Part shown: piece by piece, positions 4,841 through 17,780 of the stretch
Numbering within the stretch: position 1 is the stretch's first letter
How the letters are laid out: the number at the start of each line of letters is the position of its first letter
Sequence record: MT446412.1
Length of the DNA: 64,000 nt
Strand: one strand, 5' to 3'
Source: Escherichia virus TH41
Position numbers and translations under genes: made by a program
Notes under the pieces: model-generated
Databases searched by the model: none
The model's input: only the letters and a program-made list of their open reading frames with translations
What the model was told of the DNA's origin: nothing

Positions 4841-4961
4841 CAAAAACGCGTTATTATTAATAAGTACCCTCTATTACCAAAGGTTCTTCCCTCAAAGAAC
4901 CTTTCATAATAGCATGTGCTATTAATCAAACTTACTTTACTTAATTTTACTTGAGGTGCTT

Positions 4962-5231
4962 ATGTTAGTATTAAAATTAGCTTTTTACGACCCTAAAACA
5001 AAGACAACCACTACCAAACGTTGCTCTATTTCGTATGAGTGTCAATTTGGTGAAATTCAGCATCCAACAGGCGAAACCTTTATGTCAATTGGTTGTTCAA
5101 CATTCAATAAAGTCAAATTAATCCCGTTGGTTAATACGGCGGCTTATCTGGTTGCTCCAGAAGAAATGACTTATCATACAATTCAGCATATGGTTAAAGA
5201 TGATAATGCTCCTGCTGGATTTGTAATTTAA
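4962..5231 (+). CDS. hypothetical protein
   Basis: ATG at 4962 with GAGGTG RBS; ends 5 nt before tRNA. Confidence 0.4.
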   Translation: MLVLKLAFYDPKTKTTTTKRCSISYECQFGEIQHPTGETFMSIGCSTFNKVKLIPLVNTAAYLVAPEEMTYHTIQHMVKDDNAPAGFVI

Positions 5232-5236
5232 TTTTA

Positions 5237-5312
5237 GGCCCTGTAGCTCAATTGGTTAGAGCATCCGGCTCATAACTGGCAGGTTTCCGGTTCAAGTCCG
5301 GATGGGGCCACC
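5237..5312 (+). tRNA. tRNA with CAU anticodon (Met or lysidine-modified Ile)
   Basis: Cloverleaf by hand: acceptor GGCCCTG/TGGGGCC, D-arm GCTC..GAGC, anticodon loop CTCATAA, T-arm TCCGG-TTCAAGT-CCGGA; one mismatch in anticodon stem. Confidence 0.7.
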
Positions 5313-8456: not shown

Positions 8457-9050
8457 ATGAATACTTTAAAGAAACTTGTTGAATTCATCCGCTCCAAACT
8501 GGGTACTGCAATGGCACAAAACCTGTCTATTGAAGACCAGTATACTAAAGCTGCTTCTACCCTGATTGATAAGATTACTGAGCTCCAGACTGCCCATGTT
8601 AAGTCTGTTAATGAAGAAAAACGCATTCGCGAGTTAGCGAATGAAAAAGACCAGCTCGCTTCTTCTAAAGAACGCGAAATTCGTAAACTGATTGCTGATG
8701 GCGCAGATGTCCAGGTCCATGCTAAACTGGGTCTCCTTTATCGTCGCACTGCTAAACAACTTCGTAAGAAGGCAGATGATTATGTTGAAATGCGTAATGA
8801 AATTAAATTGAAAGTTAAAGAGCTGGATGATTCTCGTCAGGAACTAGCTGTTAAACTGGAATATATCCGCGAAACCCGTAAGGTGTCTGCGCTGGGTATT
8901 GCAACCGCAGATGATGTTGTTGAAATCGCTGCATTGACTAAGATTGATATTGAAGACACTCTGATGCGTGTTGAAACCTTCAAAGGTCCACAGGTTGGTG
9001 TGGATACCACATCCGCTGACATTGAAGAATATATCAATTCACTTAAGTAA
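8457..9050 (+). CDS. coiled-coil hypothetical protein
   Basis: 197 aa, strongly helical heptad-rich sequence. Confidence 0.5.
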
Positions 9051-9094
9051 GATAAAAAGGGGGCTTTGCCCCCTAATTGGGAGAGGAGAATATT

Positions 9095-9649
9095 ATGAGC
9101 TTATATACTGACCTTCTATCAAATGTAGACTGGTTTGGTGGTAGTGGTCTTGCCACTGAAACTAACACAGTTCTTTATAGAATCCGCGGTGACCTAGGTT
9201 ATTCCAATGATTTCTTAAGAAGAACAACAAGTCGCGGCGATACTACAAAATTGCCTTTTATTTTTGCTTTAGCTGAAGACCTTTCTTTTGCAGATGCCTT
9301 GGAAATTATTGATGTAAATCTGGGTATTCAACGAGTGGAATTCGGCGGGCTGAGTTATTCCGTGTATGCATTAAACGACCCAAGCGATTATAAACAACTT
9401 ATTGATGCGGATGATTATGACCATTTGGTATGTTATTTGATGTTGGAAAATGGTGACCACTTTGGAATGGTTGACCGCCGCCCAACTTATACTGATATTA
9501 AAAATTATGATAAAGATGAGCTTCTTGATTTGGCGGCTGAGTACACATTAGAGAGTCGTAAACGGAAACGTAAGCTTAATCGTTTTATTGCTGAATGTCG
9601 TGAATATGCTAAAGGGGTTCAAAATGCGAACGTTATATCTGCCAAGTAA
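9095..9649 (+). CDS. hypothetical protein with basic RKRKRK segment and FIAEC motif
   Basis: ATG 9095 after GGAGG RBS; 3' end overlaps next gene. Confidence 0.5.
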   Translation: MSLYTDLLSNVDWFGGSGLATETNTVLYRIRGDLGYSNDFLRRTTSRGDTTKLPFIFALAEDLSFADALEIIDVNLGIQRVEFGGLSYSVYALNDPSDYKQLIDADDYDHLVCYLMLENGDHFGMVDRRPTYTDIKNYDKDELLDLAAEYTLESRKRKRKLNRFIAECREYAKGVQNANVISAK

Positions 9650-9983
9650 ACCAGAAAAATTTGTATACGCAGACAAGATTGATAAAGACCTTATGCCTCC
9701 ATTTGGAGCTTTGTCCATGTGCATCGTTGGGGTTATAATGATGGTGCTTTGTGGGGATATGAATATCATTAGTGTTGGAGTCGCCTGGTCACTAATAATT
9801 GCAGCACCTTTTATTACAGTCCTGAGCATGATATTGATAAATGTGTGGCATCAAAATCATATGAATAAAGGATATCGTGGGCGAGTTAAAGAGTGGGAAC
9901 AAAAATGCGTTTCCCTGCAAGAAGAGCACAAAATTAAATGTGCCGAAGAATTTATTAAGGAGGTTCGTAATGGAACGGCCTAG
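9624..9983 (+). CDS. small two-TM membrane protein (FIKE tail family)
   Basis: Two hydrophobic helices then basic segment and ...EEFIKEVRNGTA. Confidence 0.5.
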   Translation: MRTLYLPSKPEKFVYADKIDKDLMPPFGALSMCIVGVIMMVLCGDMNIISVGVAWSLIIAAPFITVLSMILINVWHQNHMNKGYRGRVKEWEQKCVSLQEEHKIKCAEEFIKEVRNGTA

Positions 9984-10323
9984 TCTTGCATCACATGTTT
10001 ATCAATTGGCTGAATATGATATTGGTGCCAATTTATTATTAGGGATTGTCACCGCCATGCTTGGTGGTTTGGTTGGTCTGGTAATGACCACGGTTATGGC
10101 TGCAATCGAGGGAGTCATGCCCATTGAGATGGGTTTCTTTATGATAATCGCTCCGGCTGTTGTGTCTTATTTTATCCCTGTTGTGTATGATATCTGTCAC
10201 ACAAATGCAGTGAATGCTCCTAGTCGGAAGAGATATGGTTCAGCAATGGCTGAGTATAATAAGTTCCTGAACAAAACAAAACGTAATGAACTTGAAACCT
10301 TTATTAAGGAATGTAAATCATGA
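9970..10323 (+). CDS. small two-TM membrane protein (FIKEC tail family)
   Basis: Two TM helices, C-terminus ...LETFIKECKS. Confidence 0.5.
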   Translation: MERPSLASHVYQLAEYDIGANLLLGIVTAMLGGLVGLVMTTVMAAIEGVMPIEMGFFMIIAPAVVSYFIPVVYDICHTNAVNAPSRKRYGSAMAEYNKFLNKTKRNELETFIKECKS

Positions 10324-10610
10324 ATAAAATTGAAATTGCTATCCCCAAGTATTATGATGAGAAATCTGCAGAAAAAGCTATCTATTCTCTTCTAAATAAG
10401 ACCTCTGAAATTGAAAAACACTGTGAAGAAATCGCAGATGAATATGGTATCGAATTCAGCACTGGTGATTACGGCACCGGCCGTACATATCACCCAGTCG
10501 GTTATGAATGTTCCGAATGGTTCGCTCACCATATTGAAAACAACGGCGGACAAGTTGAAAACGGCATTGTTACTGTTGGTGCCTGGGTTTCCTCTTCTGA
10601 GGTGTGCTAA
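10320..10610 (+). CDS. small protein, member 1 of C-terminal W-x-S-S-x-x-C tandem family
   Basis: Ends ...GAWVSSSEVC; ATGA overlap with upstream gene. Confidence 0.55.
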   Translation: MNKIEIAIPKYYDEKSAEKAIYSLLNKTSEIEKHCEEIADEYGIEFSTGDYGTGRTYHPVGYECSEWFAHHIENNGGQVENGIVTVGAWVSSSEVC

Positions 10611-10611
10611 T

Positions 10612-10893
10612 ATGATGAATGATTACCGTAAAAATAAAGAACTGGCTAACGCAGTAAATGACATCCATAAAGCTATTCGTCGTGCTGAGGAAATTGCAAA
10701 CAAATATGAGACTCATTTTAATATATACCCTGCTCGCGGTATGGGCGGTGACTATTATTCTCCTGGCGCCCTGAAAGCTGACCTTGCTCATTGGGAAGAA
10801 CATGGTCATCCTGAATGGGCTATTGTTAATACTCATGACTATACAACTGACCTGGAAAAAGGCGGTTGGGTGTCCTCCTCTTCTGAATGTTAA
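10612..10893 (+). CDS. small protein, member 2 of W-x-S-S-x-x-C tandem family
   Basis: Ends ...GGWVSSSSEC; ATG 1 nt after previous stop. Confidence 0.55.
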   Translation: MMNDYRKNKELANAVNDIHKAIRRAEEIANKYETHFNIYPARGMGGDYYSPGALKADLAHWEEHGHPEWAIVNTHDYTTDLEKGGWVSSSSEC

Positions 10894-10902
10894 GGAACTA
10901 TT

Positions 10903-11100
10903 ATGTCTCGTGAACTAGATTGTGCAATCCGTACTGCCGCGGCAGCTATTGAAAACGTTATCCAGATTTGTAAAGAAGAGCGTGAAGAAGCTGATATCTA
11001 TATCGATGGTGTTCGTGACCTAGAACGACATATCACGCTTTATAATGGTTGTATTACTATTAGTGGTACCTCTTGGGTGTCCTCCTCTTACGAATGCTAA
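10903..11100 (+). CDS. small protein, member 3 of W-x-S-S-x-x-C tandem family
   Basis: Ends ...TSWVSSSYEC; RBS TAAGGAA formed by previous stop. Confidence 0.55.
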   Translation: MSRELDCAIRTAAAAIENVIQICKEEREEADIYIDGVRDLERHITLYNGCITISGTSWVSSSYEC

Positions 11101-11109
11101 GGAAATAAA

Positions 11110-11328
11110 ATGACTGCTAAAACTGTTAAAGAAATTGAAGACCAAATCCGTGCACTAATCTGTGAAGGTGAACAACTGGCCGATAAAACCGGCGAACACT
11201 TCCGTAGCGGTGGCGAAGAATATATTCCAGCTTCTAGTCCGGAATATAACGATTATGAATGGGTTCGTGACGAATATTGTATTCCAGAAGGTGAAGGTTT
11301 CTGGTTTAACTCCTCTATGTCTTGCTAA
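11110..11328 (+). CDS. small protein, member 4 of W-x-S-S-x-x-C tandem family
   Basis: Ends ...GFWFNSSMSC; RBS TAAGGAA. Confidence 0.55.
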   Translation: MTAKTVKEIEDQIRALICEGEQLADKTGEHFRSGGEEYIPASSPEYNDYEWVRDEYCIPEGEGFWFNSSMSC

Positions 11329-11337
11329 GGTGATAAA

Positions 11338-11571
11338 ATGACTACTGCTGTTGAACATGCTGAATTAGAAAAAGCTGCCCTTGAACTGGCTGCACTGTAT
11401 AAGAAAGTAAAAGATATGGCTTTTGCTCAAGATTTCGGTGTTGAGCTTGATGATTATGACGGCGAAGTCCGTCTTGAAGACTGGTTGAACAGTTCTTGTT
11501 ATGGTGAAGAAGCTGGTCGTACCTTCGTTGCTCGTGCCGATGGTAAAATCTGGTACCCAAGTTCATGTTAA
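11338..11571 (+). CDS. small protein, member 5 of W-x-S-S-x-x-C tandem family
   Basis: Contains DWLNSSC and ends ...KIWYPSSC. Confidence 0.55.
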   Translation: MTTAVEHAELEKAALELAALYKKVKDMAFAQDFGVELDDYDGEVRLEDWLNSSCYGEEAGRTFVARADGKIWYPSSC

Positions 11572-11792
11572 AATTGAAAAAACGATACATTCGTAAAATA
11601 AATGGTCTTCGCGATTATGCCAAAGGTTGGCCATTAAATCTTATTATGGCTGATAGACATCCACGTTACAATACCGAGTTGACTTATTACAAAAAGTATG
11701 ATTCGTATTGTCGGTCTAAAGCGGGTCGTTTAGATGGTTCCTATGAAGAATATTTCGGTAAAAAACCTACTCGCATTTCGTTAGGAAAATAA
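11565..11792 (+). CDS. small basic hypothetical protein
   Basis: 75 aa, Lys/Arg/Tyr-rich; start overlaps previous stop. Confidence 0.45.
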   Translation: MLKLKKRYIRKINGLRDYAKGWPLNLIMADRHPRYNTELTYYKKYDSYCRSKAGRLDGSYEEYFGKKPTRISLGK

Positions 11793-11823
11793 TTTAATCA
11801 CAAGGATGTGATAGGAGGACTTT

Positions 11824-12153
11824 GTGCATAAAGATTCAGTATTCAAATATCTTTTGAAAACAGATAAAGAATTCTATATGAATGGGCAAGCTTTCTTGTT
11901 CGTTCGCGGTAAACGTGAGATGTTTTACAAATGCGACCTCTCAATGCATCATCATATGTATCATACCCACGGTGAGTTTATACTGGGGTTCTCTGGTGAC
12001 GAAACCAGACATATAGCTATGTACTACGACCATTTTAAGCTCAATGATTGCGGTGACAACGCTCTGGTCTGGAATCCATCTTGGCGTCGTTGGGATAAGG
12101 TAGACAACGATAAATTATTTTTAGAATATTGTAGAAGCAGTATACAAGTCTAA
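11824..12153 (+). CDS. His-rich hypothetical protein (GTG start)
   Basis: GTG start 7 nt after GGAGGA RBS; motif MHHHMYHTHGE. Confidence 0.45.
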   Translation: MHKDSVFKYLLKTDKEFYMNGQAFLFVRGKREMFYKCDLSMHHHMYHTHGEFILGFSGDETRHIAMYYDHFKLNDCGDNALVWNPSWRRWDKVDNDKLFLEYCRSSIQV

Positions 12154-12217
12154 AAAACTGTGTTACTATACTCCTATCAACTGATGACAATCACGTTATC
12201 AGAACAGGAGAATAAAA

Positions 12218-12418
12218 ATGTCTATCGCAAACGAATTAATCAAAGTTCTGAACGAAGCCAAAGTCAACCAACTGGAGGTTAATCTCCAGGAAGTTTCTGA
12301 TGGCATTAAAGTAACCATCAGTGGTGATTACGCAGGCGTCACAGAACGTGTTTGTGATTCTCTGGAAGAAGTAGTTTCCTGCATTAAAAGAGATATTTAC
12401 GCATACGGTATTATTTGA
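12218..12418 (+). CDS. hypothetical protein
   Basis: 66 aa, GGAG RBS. Confidence 0.45.
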   Translation: MSIANELIKVLNEAKVNQLEVNLQEVSDGIKVTISGDYAGVTERVCDSLEEVVSCIKRDIYAYGII

Positions 12419-12428
12419 GGAAAATATT

Positions 12429-12596
12429 ATGTATAATGTTCTTATTGTTTTTGTCACTCACCCGCAAGGTGGAGTAAGACAGAATACTTCTCAAGTGGTT
12501 CAATTTTCTTCACTAGAGGCCGCCAATCTTGCTGCCTCACGAATTGAAGCGAAAAAATCTGAACTAGGTAAATATGAAGTAACTCGTCTTTATTAA
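12429..12596 (+). CDS. small hypothetical protein
   Basis: 55-aa ORF (below the track cutoff) filling the gap before 12612; GAGGAAAA RBS. Confidence 0.35.
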   Translation: MYNVLIVFVTHPQGGVRQNTSQVVQFSSLEAANLAASRIEAKKSELGKYEVTRLY

Positions 12597-12611
12597 TCTG
12601 AGGAAAATATT

Positions 12612-13571
12612 ATGATGTTAGTTATTGGTTCTCGTGCATTGCATAACGCTGGTCTGATTGAAAGTCAGAAAATTGAAAATTCTGATTGGGACTTTATCGC
12701 TGACCAAGGTTCTTGGAACCACTTTAAAGCACGTATGTTCGGTGCTCATGTTCCTGTGGATAACCCTAACGTCCAAGCTTTTAAATGTATGTACAATGGC
12801 AAAGAAACCTATTTTGAAGCTTATATTGTCCGTGCCCTGACCAACGTACGAGAAATTACTGGTGAGCTTCAAGACGAAGATTTCACCTCAAGTTATCGTC
12901 TCCTGAAATATGCTGAAAATCATATTAAAAAAGATCGTCTTACAGGTTTTTACTGGGCAACTCCTGATATTTGTCTGGCAATTAAATTATCTCATCGTTA
13001 CCTGAAGAACAATCCATTCTTCCTGAAGACCATGAGTCATATTAATTACCTTCGCAATAAGGGTGTTGTTCTTAATGATGAACTGCAGAAAATCATGTTG
13101 CAGCGTCAGGCAGAAACACTGTCATACAGCCACCCTAAACTAGACGTGGGCAAGAAAACTTTCTTTAATGATACAATCTATACCCTTGACCATGACTCCA
13201 TCCACGAGGCTGTGGCGCTTGCTGATAAGCCTGCATATAAGTTCTATATGAAGGATGATTCAGAAGTCATGACCTCACGTGAAAAATTTGAAGCACTCCC
13301 TGATGTTATTAAACTGGCAGGGGTTTATGAAGAAGCATGTGTGCTTGCTCTGGAGCGTTCGCAGGTTCCAAATGAGTTCAATATCTCTCCATCCGTGAGC
13401 TTCCATATTGCGCTGGAAAAAGTCTGCACCTCCATTACTTCTGGATGGTTCCGTGAGTATGCCTGGGAACATTACCAGGAAGTGGTTAATATGTATAACA
13501 CTCTGGGGCGCGAAGACTATGTTAAACGCTTCAAGGCTAACCAACATTTAATTCGTCCTTTCACAAAATAA
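12612..13571 (+). CDS. hypothetical protein, possible nucleotidyltransferase-fold enzyme
   Basis: 319 aa; N-terminal VIGS(R)...17 aa...SDWDF resembles Pol-beta NTase hG[GS]...DxD, but the spacer is long. Confidence 0.5.
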   Translation: MMLVIGSRALHNAGLIESQKIENSDWDFIADQGSWNHFKARMFGAHVPVDNPNVQAFKCMYNGKETYFEAYIVRALTNVREITGELQDEDFTSSYRLLKYAENHIKKDRLTGFYWATPDICLAIKLSHRYLKNNPFFLKTMSHINYLRNKGVVLNDELQKIMLQRQAETLSYSHPKLDVGKKTFFNDTIYTLDHDSIHEAVALADKPAYKFYMKDDSEVMTSREKFEALPDVIKLAGVYEEACVLALERSQVPNEFNISPSVSFHIALEKVCTSITSGWFREYAWEHYQEVVNMYNTLGREDYVKRFKANQHLIRPFTK

Positions 13572-13630
13572 GTGTGTACATCCAAGTGGGACCATGACAC
13601 AATGGTCCCACAATCAATGAGGAAAATATT

Positions 13631-14317
13631 ATGAACAGTCCAAAAACTTTTAATTCTCAAGCTCGTGCAGTAGGCGGTTTCGCTGGTAAAATTTCTAATG
13701 ATAAAATCAAAAACGAAACTATGTTCTTCAACAGCTCATTGGCTTTCGCTTTTGACAATGGCGGTCCTATTACTCGCAGCTTTATCATGAACCTGCCGGA
13801 TGATTGGAACACTGACCAGGTTGTATTTGATTCTCGGGTTCATATGTTGATGCCTGGTTGGTATCCTGCTATCCCTGGGTATCACCATGATGATGTGCCA
13901 CGCCCGGATATTCCGGTTGGTCAACACTTTATTACTGCAGGGCAACCTGATTATGATAATCCTCGTTACCATTCTGAACATATTCTTGGTCTTGTTAACG
14001 CCGATGTGTGTCCTACTTATTTTGCAACCGGAACTGCGCAATTTAGTCAGATTCCTGAAGGCGAACTTATCTATCGCCAGTGGCATAAAGAAGTTCTGGA
14101 AAAAATTGAGTCCAATGAATTAACCAAGTGGGATGCTCCTGACCGCACGTTGCTCCAGTTTGATTGGCAGACATGGCATACAGGTTCTCGCGCAGTAAGT
14201 AATGGTTGGCGCTGGTTTGGTCGTGTGTCTCGTAATACCGACCGTGTTAAAAAGATTACAAATGAAATCCGCGTTAATGCTCAAGTATATCTGGAATTCC
14301 CTATGGAGGGCTGGTAA
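13631..14317 (+). CDS. hypothetical protein, possible 2OG-Fe(II)-oxygenase-like
   Basis: 228 aa with YHHDD and distal WHTGSR...R; weak motif evidence only. Confidence 0.45.
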   Translation: MNSPKTFNSQARAVGGFAGKISNDKIKNETMFFNSSLAFAFDNGGPITRSFIMNLPDDWNTDQVVFDSRVHMLMPGWYPAIPGYHHDDVPRPDIPVGQHFITAGQPDYDNPRYHSEHILGLVNADVCPTYFATGTAQFSQIPEGELIYRQWHKEVLEKIESNELTKWDAPDRTLLQFDWQTWHTGSRAVSNGWRWFGRVSRNTDRVKKITNEIRVNAQVYLEFPMEGW

Positions 14318-14904
14318 TGGCCCTTTATGAACCCGGTTGTATGGGTGTTGATGTAAACTTCATCCGCCGGGCAGAAAATGCAGGTATAATTGTATCAAGA
14401 GATGAATTTATGATTACCAAAAAATATTGGGCGAACCTTGATGATGGTGATGAAGGAATCAAGGTGGAAAATGTTGATTGGTCGCGATGCAATCGTCATG
14501 TGAAAGAGCTTTTAATTAAGGAATATAAAATGGGATACATCATTAACGGACATCAACCAGAACCACTCAAAGAACAGACACCCGACCCATTAATTTCTTA
14601 TAGCAAGAAATATGGATTTCGTACCTGGAGTGATGAATTTGATAAGTTAATTTGTTCCAGGTTTTATGCCTGGTCTGGAATCTTATTTTTACCATTCCTG
14701 TGGTTTTTCCTGACAGGTAAAAATGAAGCACCTGTAGCTGTAATGGGCGCGTGCTTTTCTACTGCTCTTGCTGGACTTATTGCATCATTTTTATGGACTA
14801 TGGTTATTGAAGTACCTTTTCGTATTTCTAAAGTTAAAAAGGTATATGACGATATCACTAAGAAAAATACATTGAACTCTTTTATTGAGGAATGCCGTAA
14901 ATGA
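14317..14904 (+). CDS. membrane protein with soluble N-domain (FIEEC tail family)
   Basis: C-terminal two hydrophobic helices and ...LNSFIEECRK. Confidence 0.5.
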   Translation: MALYEPGCMGVDVNFIRRAENAGIIVSRDEFMITKKYWANLDDGDEGIKVENVDWSRCNRHVKELLIKEYKMGYIINGHQPEPLKEQTPDPLISYSKKYGFRTWSDEFDKLICSRFYAWSGILFLPFLWFFLTGKNEAPVAVMGACFSTALAGLIASFLWTMVIEVPFRISKVKKVYDDITKKNTLNSFIEECRK

Positions 14905-15137
14905 GTATTGCAATTTATATTAAATCCGAGTCATGTGATTCTTATCTGTATTCCTATGACACTGGAACATCAGAAGAGAAAATAAAAGAAGATTTAGAAA
15001 CTGACTTGGATATGTTCCGACCAATTTCCGATTACATGATTCAAGTTTCTGATAGTGAAAGCCCTTCATTGGAAAATAGACTTGAATTTTTAATGAGCGA
15101 TATTTTTAACCAATCATGGAAACGAGACGATGAGTAG
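14901..15137 (+). CDS. small acidic hypothetical protein
   Basis: 78 aa, Asp/Glu/Ser-rich. Confidence 0.45.
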   Translation: MSIAIYIKSESCDSYLYSYDTGTSEEKIKEDLETDLDMFRPISDYMIQVSDSESPSLENRLEFLMSDIFNQSWKRDDE

Positions 15138-15588
15138 GAAAAACAAGGTGAAAGAATTATCTGCTGGCATTATTTTCATGACTGAAGATAAAGAGTTATT
15201 CATGGGTCGTGTGACCGGTTCTCGTAAACCAGGTATGCCTGCACACAAATGGGACATCCCTAAGGGTCATGTTGAAGCTGGTGAATCCCCGATTGAAGCG
15301 GCTATTCGTGAAACCGAAGAAGAAACTGGGTTTACCCAATACGACCCGGCATTCTTAAAAGACCTCGGTGAGTTCCGTTATTCAGATAATAAAAACCTTC
15401 ACCTGTTTTTGTATACGGTTCCTGTCGAGCATGAACAATTCAGGCACAGTAAATGCTCTGCCTATCATACCTTCCCGGATGGCAGTTCGGTCCCAGAGTT
15501 CGATGCATTTGCTCTGATTAAACCGAGTCAATGGCAGTACGTGATGGGTAAATCGATGTACAAGGTAATGACTCAAATTTTCGGATAA
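15130..15588 (+). CDS. nudE: Nudix hydrolase NudE
   Basis: Nudix box GHVEAGESPIEAAIRETEEETG; upstream of e as in T4. Confidence 0.85.
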   Translation: MSRKNKVKELSAGIIFMTEDKELFMGRVTGSRKPGMPAHKWDIPKGHVEAGESPIEAAIRETEEETGFTQYDPAFLKDLGEFRYSDNKNLHLFLYTVPVEHEQFRHSKCSAYHTFPDGSSVPEFDAFALIKPSQWQYVMGKSMYKVMTQIFG

Positions 15589-15614: not shown

Positions 15615-16103
15615 ATGAATATATTCGAAATGTTACGCATAGATGAAGGTTGTAAGTTGGATTTGTATAAAGATACAGAAGGCTTTTGGACCATCGGTAT
15701 CGGGCAACTGATAACTAAGAACCCATCGAAAGATGTAGCTCGCGCTGAGCTCGACAAGCTTATGGGTCGTGTTTGTAATGGTCGCATAACCCAGCACGAA
15801 GCTGAAACATTGTTTAATCGTTCGGTCGAAAAAGCTAAAGCCGGAATCTTGAGACACCCTGTCTTAAAACCTGTTTATGATGTACTGGATGAAGTTCGTC
15901 GTTGTGCGCTCATTAATATGGTATTCCAGATGGGTGTTGCTGGTGTTGCTGGTTTTCCTAAGGGTATGCGATTGTTGAAGGCTAAATCATGGGAAGCCGC
16001 CGCTAAGGAACTGGCCGACTCGAGATGGTATAAAGTCCAGACTCCGAACCGGGCTAAACGAGTTATCGAAACTTTCCGCACCGGAACTTTTGACGCATAT
16101 TAG
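15615..16103 (+). CDS. e: endolysin (T4 lysozyme e)
   Basis: [12 protein letters not shown]...[11 protein letters not shown] matches T4 lysozyme including catalytic Glu11/Asp20/Thr26 region. Confidence 0.95.
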
Positions 16104-17480: not shown

Positions 17481-17780
17481 ATGAAAACGTATCAAGAATT
17501 TATCACAGAAGCCAAAGCTCCTAAAGCATTTCAAATCGGAGTCCAGGGCAATTTAGACCAACAATATGTTGATGCTATTGTCGCAAGCCTCGGTAAACAA
17601 GGTGTACAAGTGGATTTGGTTGATTTTACTAAAGGTAATACTTTTAATATTGTCGCATCTAAAGGTTCTTTAGCTAAAGTTAAAAAGGCCTTTGGCGTAG
17701 CACAAGCATATGAAATTGACCATTCTGAATTAGAAAATAAAGGTCGCCAGAACACAATTAAAGGCTCTGGTTCTTTTTAA
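17481..17780 (+). CDS. capsid-targeted internal protein
   Basis: MKTYQEFITEAKAP... Confidence 0.6.
   Translation: MKTYQEFITEAKAPKAFQIGVQGNLDQQYVDAIVASLGKQGVQVDLVDFTKGNTFNIVASKGSLAKVKKAFGVAQAYEIDHSELENKGRQNTIKGSGSF

Follow-up and report, generated by a model that had tools for sequence, protein, structure and literature searches.

The genes e.2 to e.5 of phage T4, which adjoin and overlap one another within the order e.6-e.5-e.4-e.3-e.2-nudE-e, belong to families that have been known and annotated since the T4 genome was sequenced and that are uncharacterised. Described systems with which such genes can be compared include the PeSL (promoter-early plus stem-loop) cassettes, which account for modular shuffling in the hyperplastic regions of T4-type phages (PMC2839356, PMC4122927), the small membrane proteins Imm and Sp, the class II holins, and the short terminal peptides carried by unrelated proteins, such as the capsid-targeting N-terminus of T4 internal proteins or the C-terminal helices through which MinD and FtsA are targeted to membranes. 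Here we analyse the corresponding cluster in a 64,000-nucleotide stretch of DNA from Escherichia virus TH41 (sequence record MT446412.1; this whole stretch is called the window below). Its small proteins end in a hexapeptide, [F/W/Y]-[I/V]-x-x-C-R, here termed the tail, which, judged from comparison across related loci, is a real, deeply conserved and region-specific tag on otherwise unrelated small proteins, membrane-bound and soluble alike.

By its sequence, the source phage is a T4-like member of the genus Gaprivervirus: the 6 kb around the cluster are 92-94% identical to the Gaprivervirus phages P896 and SP18, and the e.4 and e.6 proteins are 100% identical to their counterparts in Escherichia phage UPEC01. 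The plus strand of the window corresponds to the direction of early transcription in T4, and coordinates were assigned by comparison with the SP18 and T4 records (Table 1). The window set resembles T4 e.2-e.5 in gene order, in overlaps (26 and 14 nt within positions 9095-10323), in the two-helix architecture and in the C-terminal tail. It differs in that a 4-kb block, including an array of W-S-S-C genes, is inserted between e.3 and e.2, and in that its e.5-like gene falls into a different PHROG (8788) and matches T4 e.5 at the profile level only.

Profile and positional comparisons identify open reading frames (ORFs) 9095, 9624, 9970 and 14317, named by their first positions, as orthologues of T4 e.5, e.4, e.3 and e.2, respectively, the first being treated as a remote homologue; the window genes are thus members of the known T4 families. 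ORF 9624 matches phrog_2604 (E=3.5e-45, residues 1-118) and T4-like e.4 by tblastn (28-35% identity over 95% of the length), its close homologues carry the precomputed Pfam accession PF26873, and its place between e.5 and e.3, together with its two membrane helices, matches the T4 e.4 family. ORF 9970 matches phrog_2330 (E=4.2e-45, residues 1-117), and ORF 14317 matches phrog_2203 (E=4.3e-65) and has the N-terminal motif W-x-x-L-D-D-G-D-x-G-I in common with T4 e.2. ORF 9095 belongs to phrog_8788 (E=5.7e-110) and matches phrog_2607, the PHROG of T4 e.5, only weakly in direct comparison (E=0.0022); profile-profile alignment with the T4 e.5 family gives 94.6% (131 columns), and the gene keeps its place after e.6. 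The start of e.4 at 9624 is preceded, 6 nt upstream, by a good Shine-Dalgarno site, AAAGGGG, and some annotations use an alternative start at 9606.

The initial annotation had described ORFs 9624, 9970 and the C-terminal half of 14317 as two hydrophobic helices followed by a basic segment and a common tail, and ORF 9095 as a soluble domain; ORFs, segments and tails were rechecked and agree with that description, ORF 9095 having no hydrophobic segment and a tail-bearing C-terminus (RKRKRKLNRFIAECREYAKGVQNANVISAK). The tail usually has a hydrophobic residue at -3 or -4 and basic residues after it, and across lineages it takes the relaxed form [F/W]-[I/V]-x-x-[C, less often V/I/M]-[R/K]. Six plus-strand ORFs of the window carry the strict tail in their last 22 residues, where 2000 residue shuffles predict 0.09; real cluster genes make up four of them, and the other two are 51-residue ORFs that look like chance matches. 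The relaxed pattern additionally recovers the window e.4. One tail gene lies beyond the set first described, at 11824-12153 (FLEYCRSSIQV). In T4 the corresponding ends are FVKECREYVKAITIPSK (FVKECREY...) for e.5, FVKESRCKSQS for e.4 and FVIDCRKIK for e.3.

The wider distribution was examined with e.6, the invariant upstream neighbour of the tail-gene cluster, as anchor for retrieving related loci; 34 e.6-anchored loci (50-99% identity) and annotated Jiaodavirus and Mosigvirus loci make up the 36 loci of the sample. Each lineage encodes 2-6 tail proteins per genome between e.6 and nudE, and the whole collection amounts to 101 distinct non-redundant tails in 26 BLAST families. Many of these families are two-helix membrane proteins; the soluble ones are both e.5 families and families 20, 41, 42, 52, 59 and 62. 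Of the 599 ORFs lying 0-7 kb after the e.6 start, 156 have the tail; upstream it is seen in 4 of 619 (all doubtful) and further downstream in none, so that in all 36 loci it is restricted to the roughly 7-kb interval from e.6 to nudE. Cys (84 of 101) and Arg (96 of 101) are its most conserved residues, and the distance from tail to C-terminus is 0 to 15 residues. The e.5 family, with 11-21% identity among its members, has just five invariant residues, Met1, N94, F164, C168 and R169, the last three of which belong to the tail. A Providencia phage whose e.6 is 33% identical still has the tails YIKHCRGE, FVDKCRGKK, FVDECRRRQNEN and YVKHCRGK, and Aeromonas phage 44RR2.8t has FVDYCRRTASKK. That one short ending recurs on so many different proteins suggests a common binding partner.

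Structural predictions place the tail in the cytoplasm. Hydropathy, the distribution of Lys and Arg, and an AlphaFold2 model of e.4 (75 sequences; mean predicted local distance difference test score, pLDDT, 79.8) agree on a hairpin with both ends cytoplasmic, in keeping with the two helices first described. The numbers of Lys plus Arg in e.4 are 5 at the N-terminus, 0 in the loop and 9 at the C-terminus, and across the hairpins 0-1 in the loop and 8-9 in the C-terminal segment, a distribution from which both hairpin termini are expected to be cytoplasmic. The e.4 model has helices at residues 24-45 and 51-115 with a 5-residue turn between them, and since the second is unbroken, this membrane helix should run about 40 residues into the cytoplasm. 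As predicted, then, e.4 and e.3 are two-helix inner-membrane hairpins with an almost absent periplasmic loop and a basic cytoplasmic helix. The e.4 tail lies at the free helix tip, the best-predicted part of the model (pLDDT 85-93), where it has nothing to pack against. Hydrophobic residues at -3/-4, 0, +1 and +4 make one face of the terminal helix in the sequences, which is the pattern of a packing or docking surface. A Foldseek search of the e.4 model against the PDB and a viral structure library returned its own family only.

We therefore put forward, tentatively and as a reading that falls somewhat short of probable, that the tail is one face of an amphipathic helix and works in the cytoplasm as a common element for docking or assembly. 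Through it, soluble members and membrane hairpins would meet one another, or one shared partner of phage (e.6, for example) or host origin, at the inner membrane face, and the variable protein bodies would add accessory functions particular to each lineage, for example host takeover, exclusion or counter-defence. The C-terminal end of e.6 is itself tail-like in all lineages (E-Y-I-N-S-L-K, that is, aromatic, aliphatic, x, x, Leu, Lys). Because of this ending and of its constant upstream position, and with 1110 phage records containing it, e.6 is a candidate partner or founding member of the tail set. A bolder form of the proposal, which we consider rather unlikely, would make the tail a signal for sorting or docking that is specific to phages and has so far gone unrecognised. 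It would define an early multi-protein assembly at the inner membrane, on the cytoplasmic side, made up of the hairpins e.2, e.3, e.4 and their relatives, the e.5-type soluble proteins and, in most lineages, the W-S-S-C proteins, with acquisition of a tail at a repeated junction plugging in new effectors.

A formal parallel exists with MinD and FtsA and with the T4 internal proteins, in which a short terminal peptide likewise sits on unrelated proteins. The tail, which contains aromatic and basic residues, has the character of an amphipathic helix; it differs in sequence, is too short and too charged for membrane binding alone, and is partly found on proteins that are already anchored. Kinship with the prohead-protease site or the capsid-targeting leader was considered and rejected, the likeness being confined to F-I-x-E and judged a matter of chance (Glu4 occurs in 35 of 101 tails). 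As a separate observation, the ORF that begins at window position 17499 starts with MKTYQEFITEAKAP, the capsid-targeting leader typical of T4 internal head proteins (MKTYQEFITEAK).

Several points weigh against a docking element. The related loci are phylogenetically non-independent, so that the enrichment statistics overstate the number of independent observations, and common descent could by itself account for a conserved short helix end. The structure prediction covered monomers only, and the model of the e.5-like protein was unusable (pLDDT 44) and gives no placement of its tail, free or packed on its own domain. Finally, the e.4 lineage and a few others have V, I, M or S in place of the Cys, which weakens any thiol-dependent role; the same replacements fit a hydrophobic contact.

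Common descent is also the starting point of the strongest competing explanation, which we regard as unlikely: the tail may be an inherited structural helix end without a shared partner, derived from one ancestral gene by tandem duplication and N-terminal replacement, and may do nothing except cap or stabilise the C-terminal helix. Relationships of the required kind do exist. ORFs 9624 and 9970 are weakly similar in pairwise BLASTP (21% identity, E=3e-5), profile comparison of e.4 with e.3 by hhalign gives 90.7% probability over 64 columns, and the two can be aligned directly over their full length, collinear between an N-terminal (K/R)-P-S motif and the tail, with the N-terminal Pro and the tail Phe shared; they are therefore old, diverged tandem paralogues. 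The C-terminal half of e.2 aligns with the two-helix family f28 (92% over 61 columns), and in the window the corresponding half of ORF 14317 resembles the other ORFs mainly through the tail. One 106-residue protein, P0159, begins with the N-terminal 31 residues of a T4-type e.4 and continues as the e.2 tail and the C-terminal membrane helix before it; it looks like a deletion chimera in which the remainder of e.4, the whole of e.3 and the N-terminal portion of e.2 are gone; the repeated gene junctions described below favour such rearrangements between paralogues. The soluble members are harder to accommodate. Alignment of the e.5 families with e.3 is limited to 17-18 tail columns (control families give 0.1% against e.3), and the tail Phe, Cys and Arg are invariant in an e.5 family that keeps little else. 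The tail also survives where e.6 is only 33% identical, a mere cap needs no invariant Cys-Arg, and the modelled e.4 tail offers no packing surface at its free tip. The e.3/e.4 profile, searched against 1.84 billion representative proteins, reached 12 clusters only, all of the same kind, and found no member in bacteria or in other phage groups.

A second alternative, distinctly less likely, sees in Cys-Arg a modification or regulatory site, through ADP-ribosylation by Alt, ModA or ModB, thiol chemistry or regulated proteolysis, that would place a set of early proteins under common control. T4 encodes Arg-specific ADP-ribosyltransferases, Cys and Arg are the residues that vary least, and the cluster always ends beside nudE, which the T4 record describes as a Nudix enzyme active on ADP-ribose and NAD(H). 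In some families, however, Cys is replaceable by V, I or M, and the variable tail-to-end distance speaks against a C-terminal degron.

A third, quite improbable, explanation would make the peptide a by-product of a nucleic-acid element, either a translation-initiation region (A/U-rich tract, Shine-Dalgarno site, spacer and ATG) or the boundary of a recombination cassette. The DNA under the tail does invite it. In the window and in T4 this DNA reads TTTATT, then AAGGAG, AAGGAA or GAGGAA, then TGT-CGT, with the next ATG within a few bases; the two x-x codons sit 6-10 nt before that ATG, and the K-E or E-E codons are therefore the Shine-Dalgarno site of the next gene. More generally, AAG-GAA, AAG-GAG, GAG-GAA or AGR Arg codons of the tail often double in this way, AGA and AGG supply 51% of the Arg codons in tails but 16% of those in the region, and 16-nt junction repeats flank e.4, a gene that is cleanly absent from JS98-like phages. 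The AGA/AGG excess fits AGGA-type ribosome-binding-site use and is a secondary nucleic-acid imprint, and the tight overlaps between genes are consistent with translational coupling.

As the main cause of the tail, a mere Shine-Dalgarno artefact was nevertheless rejected. Across families, information content has a 3-nt periodicity, with peaks at codon positions 1 and 2 and a fall at position 3; Phe is encoded by TTT or TTC, Ile by ATT, ATC or ATA, Cys by TGT or TGC and Arg by all six codons; and some proteins have Trp or Tyr in place of the tail Phe. The spacing between the tail and the next ATG varies (18 to 50 nt), families 20, 42 and 62 keep the tail without a downstream overlap, and AAG at the position-3 Lys is used no more than the regional average. 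The hexapeptide itself is thus under protein-level purifying selection, and because of the periodicity, the synonymous variation and the exchange of Phe for Trp or Tyr, the tail is best read as a selected peptide whose codons have been reused for translation initiation, a case of dual coding in which the tail codons are the ribosome-binding site of the next gene.

The same junctions provide a route for gene gain and loss. Two near-identical 16-nt repeats flank e.4 (Table 1), and in the JS98-like loci L010, L011 and L014 a single fused junction, GCTAAAGAGGTTCAAAATGGAACGGCC, joins e.5 to e.3 with no e.4 between them; by comparison of these sequences, such junctions allow whole genes, for example e.4, to come and go as in-phase cassettes. 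Since the boundaries lie in coding sequence, exchange should disturb neither the reading frame nor the overlap with the gene that follows. Decay is also seen: in Mosigvirus AV118 (L005, about 4950-5300) the e.4 homologue is an unannotated pseudogene with stop codons whose tail, EFVKEIRCKS, is still recognisable. The e.2 gene of the T4 reference (NC_000866; L003, 1992-2461, minus strand) encodes 102 residues because one nucleotide is missing from an A-run; about 65 nt later a 1-nt insertion compensates for this, and the lost second helix and NNFITECRKLK can be read up to nudE. Close T4 relatives (L018-L020) have an intact e.2 of 162 residues ending FITECRKLK, and the frameshift pair in T4 could be a real pseudogene or an old sequencing error.

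PeSL cassettes share with this cluster the setting of small ORFs in a hyperplastic region and the principle that short repeated boundaries permit whole-gene gain and loss. They differ in that their boundary is an intergenic promoter and terminator, whereas here it is a coding tail with a Shine-Dalgarno site and an ATG inside overlapping genes. Early promoter and stem-loop flanks of the PeSL type were not found in the cluster, whose genes run without intergenic space; the sole hairpin lies between e.6 and the e.5-like gene (Table 1), with an equivalent 3' of e.6 in every related locus, and a promoter scan gave 32 promoter-like sites against 28 expected, not above background.

The membrane genes had also been proposed to be paired with the W-S-S-C array and to form one module with it at 9095-11571. 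Conservation of the pairing is clear. W-S-S-C genes are present in 29 of the 36 loci, with 2-5 paralogues per array, and in 28 of these 29 a tail gene lies immediately upstream of the first array gene, with an overlap in 27, usually through ATGA (in the window, e.3 overlaps the first W-S-S-C gene by 4 nt). Eight lineages have arrays, namely the Gaprivervirus/JS98-like and Mosigvirus phages and phages like PEi20 (Edwardsiella), PM2 (Pectobacterium), Marfa (Klebsiella), Merlin, vB_Ent31 (Enterobacter) and CHI14 (Serratia), and in some lineages soluble tail proteins are interleaved inside the array. Tail genes occur without an array, however, in Jiaodavirus, at locus L035, in T4-like phages and in the phages of Providencia and Aeromonas. 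The pairing, though conserved, is therefore not obligatory, and the membrane genes can do without the array; the proposed module holds as far as its link to the array goes and proves too narrow, since the unit extends from e.6 to nudE (8457-15588) and includes e.2 and the gene at 11824. The W-S-S-C domain aligns to the last 90 of the 221 positions of the phrog_899 profile, so longer relatives exist.

Table 1. Positions of the features discussed, in the window unless another locus is named
Feature	Position	Strand	Description
e.6 homologue	8457-9050	+	197 aa (amino acids), soluble; 75% identity to T4 e.6; phrog_1203 (no function annotated)
G+C-rich intergenic hairpin	9058-9074	+	GGGGGCTTTGCCCCC; between e.6 and e.5-like gene
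e.5-like gene	9095-9649	+	184 aa, soluble, without hydrophobic segment; basic stretch, then FIAECR tail (nt 9584-9601)
Junction repeat, copy 1	9611-9626	+	AAAGGGGTTCAAAATG; Shine-Dalgarno site, spacer and e.4 ATG; 13/16 identical to copy 2
e.4 orthologue	9624-9983	+	119 aa; hydrophobic segments ~aa 26-44 and 54-72; tail FIKEVR (nt 9951-9968), end FIKEVRNGTA
Junction repeat, copy 2	9957-9972	+	AAGGAGGTTCGTAATG; inside e.4 tail codons (K-E-V-R-N-G); Shine-Dalgarno site and e.3 ATG
e.3 orthologue	9970-10323	+	117 aa; hydrophobic segments ~aa 22-40 and 54-72; tail FIKECK (nt 10300-10317), end FIKECKS
W-S-S-C array	10320-11571	+	five small soluble paralogues ending W-x-S-S-x-x-C; phrog_899, phrog_4882 (no function annotated)
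Variable block	11565-14317		between array and e.2
Soluble tail protein	11824-12153	+	109 aa; ends FLEYCRSSIQV (tail nt 12118-12135); phrog_9796
319-aa protein	12612-13571		Pfam DUF7277 and DUF7275; present in 28 loci
228-aa protein	13631-14317		phrog_1843; present in 23 loci
e.2 orthologue	14317-14904	+	195 aa; soluble N-terminal domain; hydrophobic segments ~aa 116-134 and 140-158; tail FIEECR (nt 14881-14898), end FIEECRK
78-aa strongly acidic protein	14901-15137		phrog_2900; 22 loci including Jiaodavirus
nudE	15130-15588		by comparison with SP18 and T4
Lysozyme gene e	15615-16103		by comparison with SP18 and T4
W-S-S-C array, L005	5653-6447		
W-S-S-C array, L021	10716-12330		
W-S-S-C array, L037	10832-11391		

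As for the remaining genes of the interval, the e.6 protein found no relative in Pfam or PDB sequence searches, and an assignment as a PspA-like protein, suggested by its coiled-coil look, was dropped, there being no PspA_IM30 match. The protein at 11824-12153 is rich in His and Cys and has no overlapping gene downstream; its membership in the tail set is by the motif alone, hhalign comparisons with the e.3 and e.5 families being at noise level. At the far end, e.2 overlaps the next gene through ATGA and is always followed by the acidic 78-residue protein and then by nudE; whichever gene is the last to carry a tail, e.2 or an equivalent, the gene of the acidic protein always comes next and overlaps that gene as well as nudE, and the Providencia phage has a similar ORF of 74 residues.

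Names in public records offer little help. The labels "nucleotidyltransferase" and "phytanoyl-CoA dioxygenase", given in one record to the proteins at 12612-13571 and 13631-14317, have no model or PDB support; "sulfurtransferase", the NCBI name of some e.4 homologues (P0045, P0053, P0057, P0062 and others), has no model support; nor have the labels ubiquitinyl hydrolase, VirB3, MotA-ExbB, holin and antitoxin in PQ341120 (phage EAWsc9, L002). Public annotations of the cluster genes are unreliable. Our own searches of the cluster proteins against Pfam, NCBIfam, PADLOC and PDB sequences gave no significant match, and PADLOC defence models had no match for 9095, 9624, 9970, 14317 or e.6.

Superinfection exclusion and membrane-targeted counter-defence, both raised in the initial annotation, are possible roles. 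Imm has two membrane helices. Like Imm and Sp, the e-cluster proteins are small, membrane-bound products of early phage genes that are accessory and dispensable in the laboratory; they differ in having no sequence similarity or Pfam match to these proteins, periplasmic loops of 4-8 residues and a long cytoplasmic helix with the tail. Comparison with the exclusion proteins Imm, Sp and SieB found no similarity, the only hit being a sub-threshold match of ORF 9970 to SieB (E=0.19, 11.7 bits against a cut-off of 26).

The same annotation had suggested holin- or antiholin-like control of lysis. The e-cluster proteins do resemble class II holins in having about 100 residues, two membrane helices, cytoplasmic ends and a charged cytoplasmic C-terminal tail, they lie 5 kb upstream of the lysozyme gene e, and the EAWsc9 record labels an e.2 homologue "holin". 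T4-like phages, however, use the unrelated holin T, class II holins are late, and the cluster has early RNAs, tandem paralogues and no lysis-cassette context. In T4 the e.2-e.6 RNAs are all classed as early, and among the proteins e.4 and e.5 are early, e.2 and e.6 middle and e.3 late (PMC9697503, supplement files 4 and 6); knock-down of e.2-e.6 has no fitness effect ("Not Fit"), with essentiality listed as unknown (PMC11879866, supplement files 8 and 15). A lysis-timing role is very improbable, given early expression of e.4 and e.5 without lysis, the lack of a fitness effect, the lack of any holin-family match in Pfam, PHROGs or the viral structure library, and the plainly spurious character of the other EAWsc9 labels (VirB3, malate synthase, transposase). 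The T4 genes are instead expressed accessory genes. A literature search by the gene names e.2-e.6 and by region found nothing informative beyond these supplementary tables, and the main texts on CRISPRi-ART and HIDEN-SEQ do not mention the genes.

Taken by themselves, these genes are ordinary T4 "dark matter". What is new is that one short C-terminal peptide ties together at least 26 unrelated-looking families of small early proteins within one hyperplastic region, in a pattern that spans the T4-like phages of Escherichia, Klebsiella, Serratia, Pectobacterium, Edwardsiella, Providencia and Aeromonas. What had been a set of orphan ORFs can thereby be tested as a single system, with one tail peptide, one class of point mutation and T4 as a tractable model. 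If the tail is indeed a shared docking signal, a phage could plug new effectors into a conserved platform by gaining a tail at a repeated junction.

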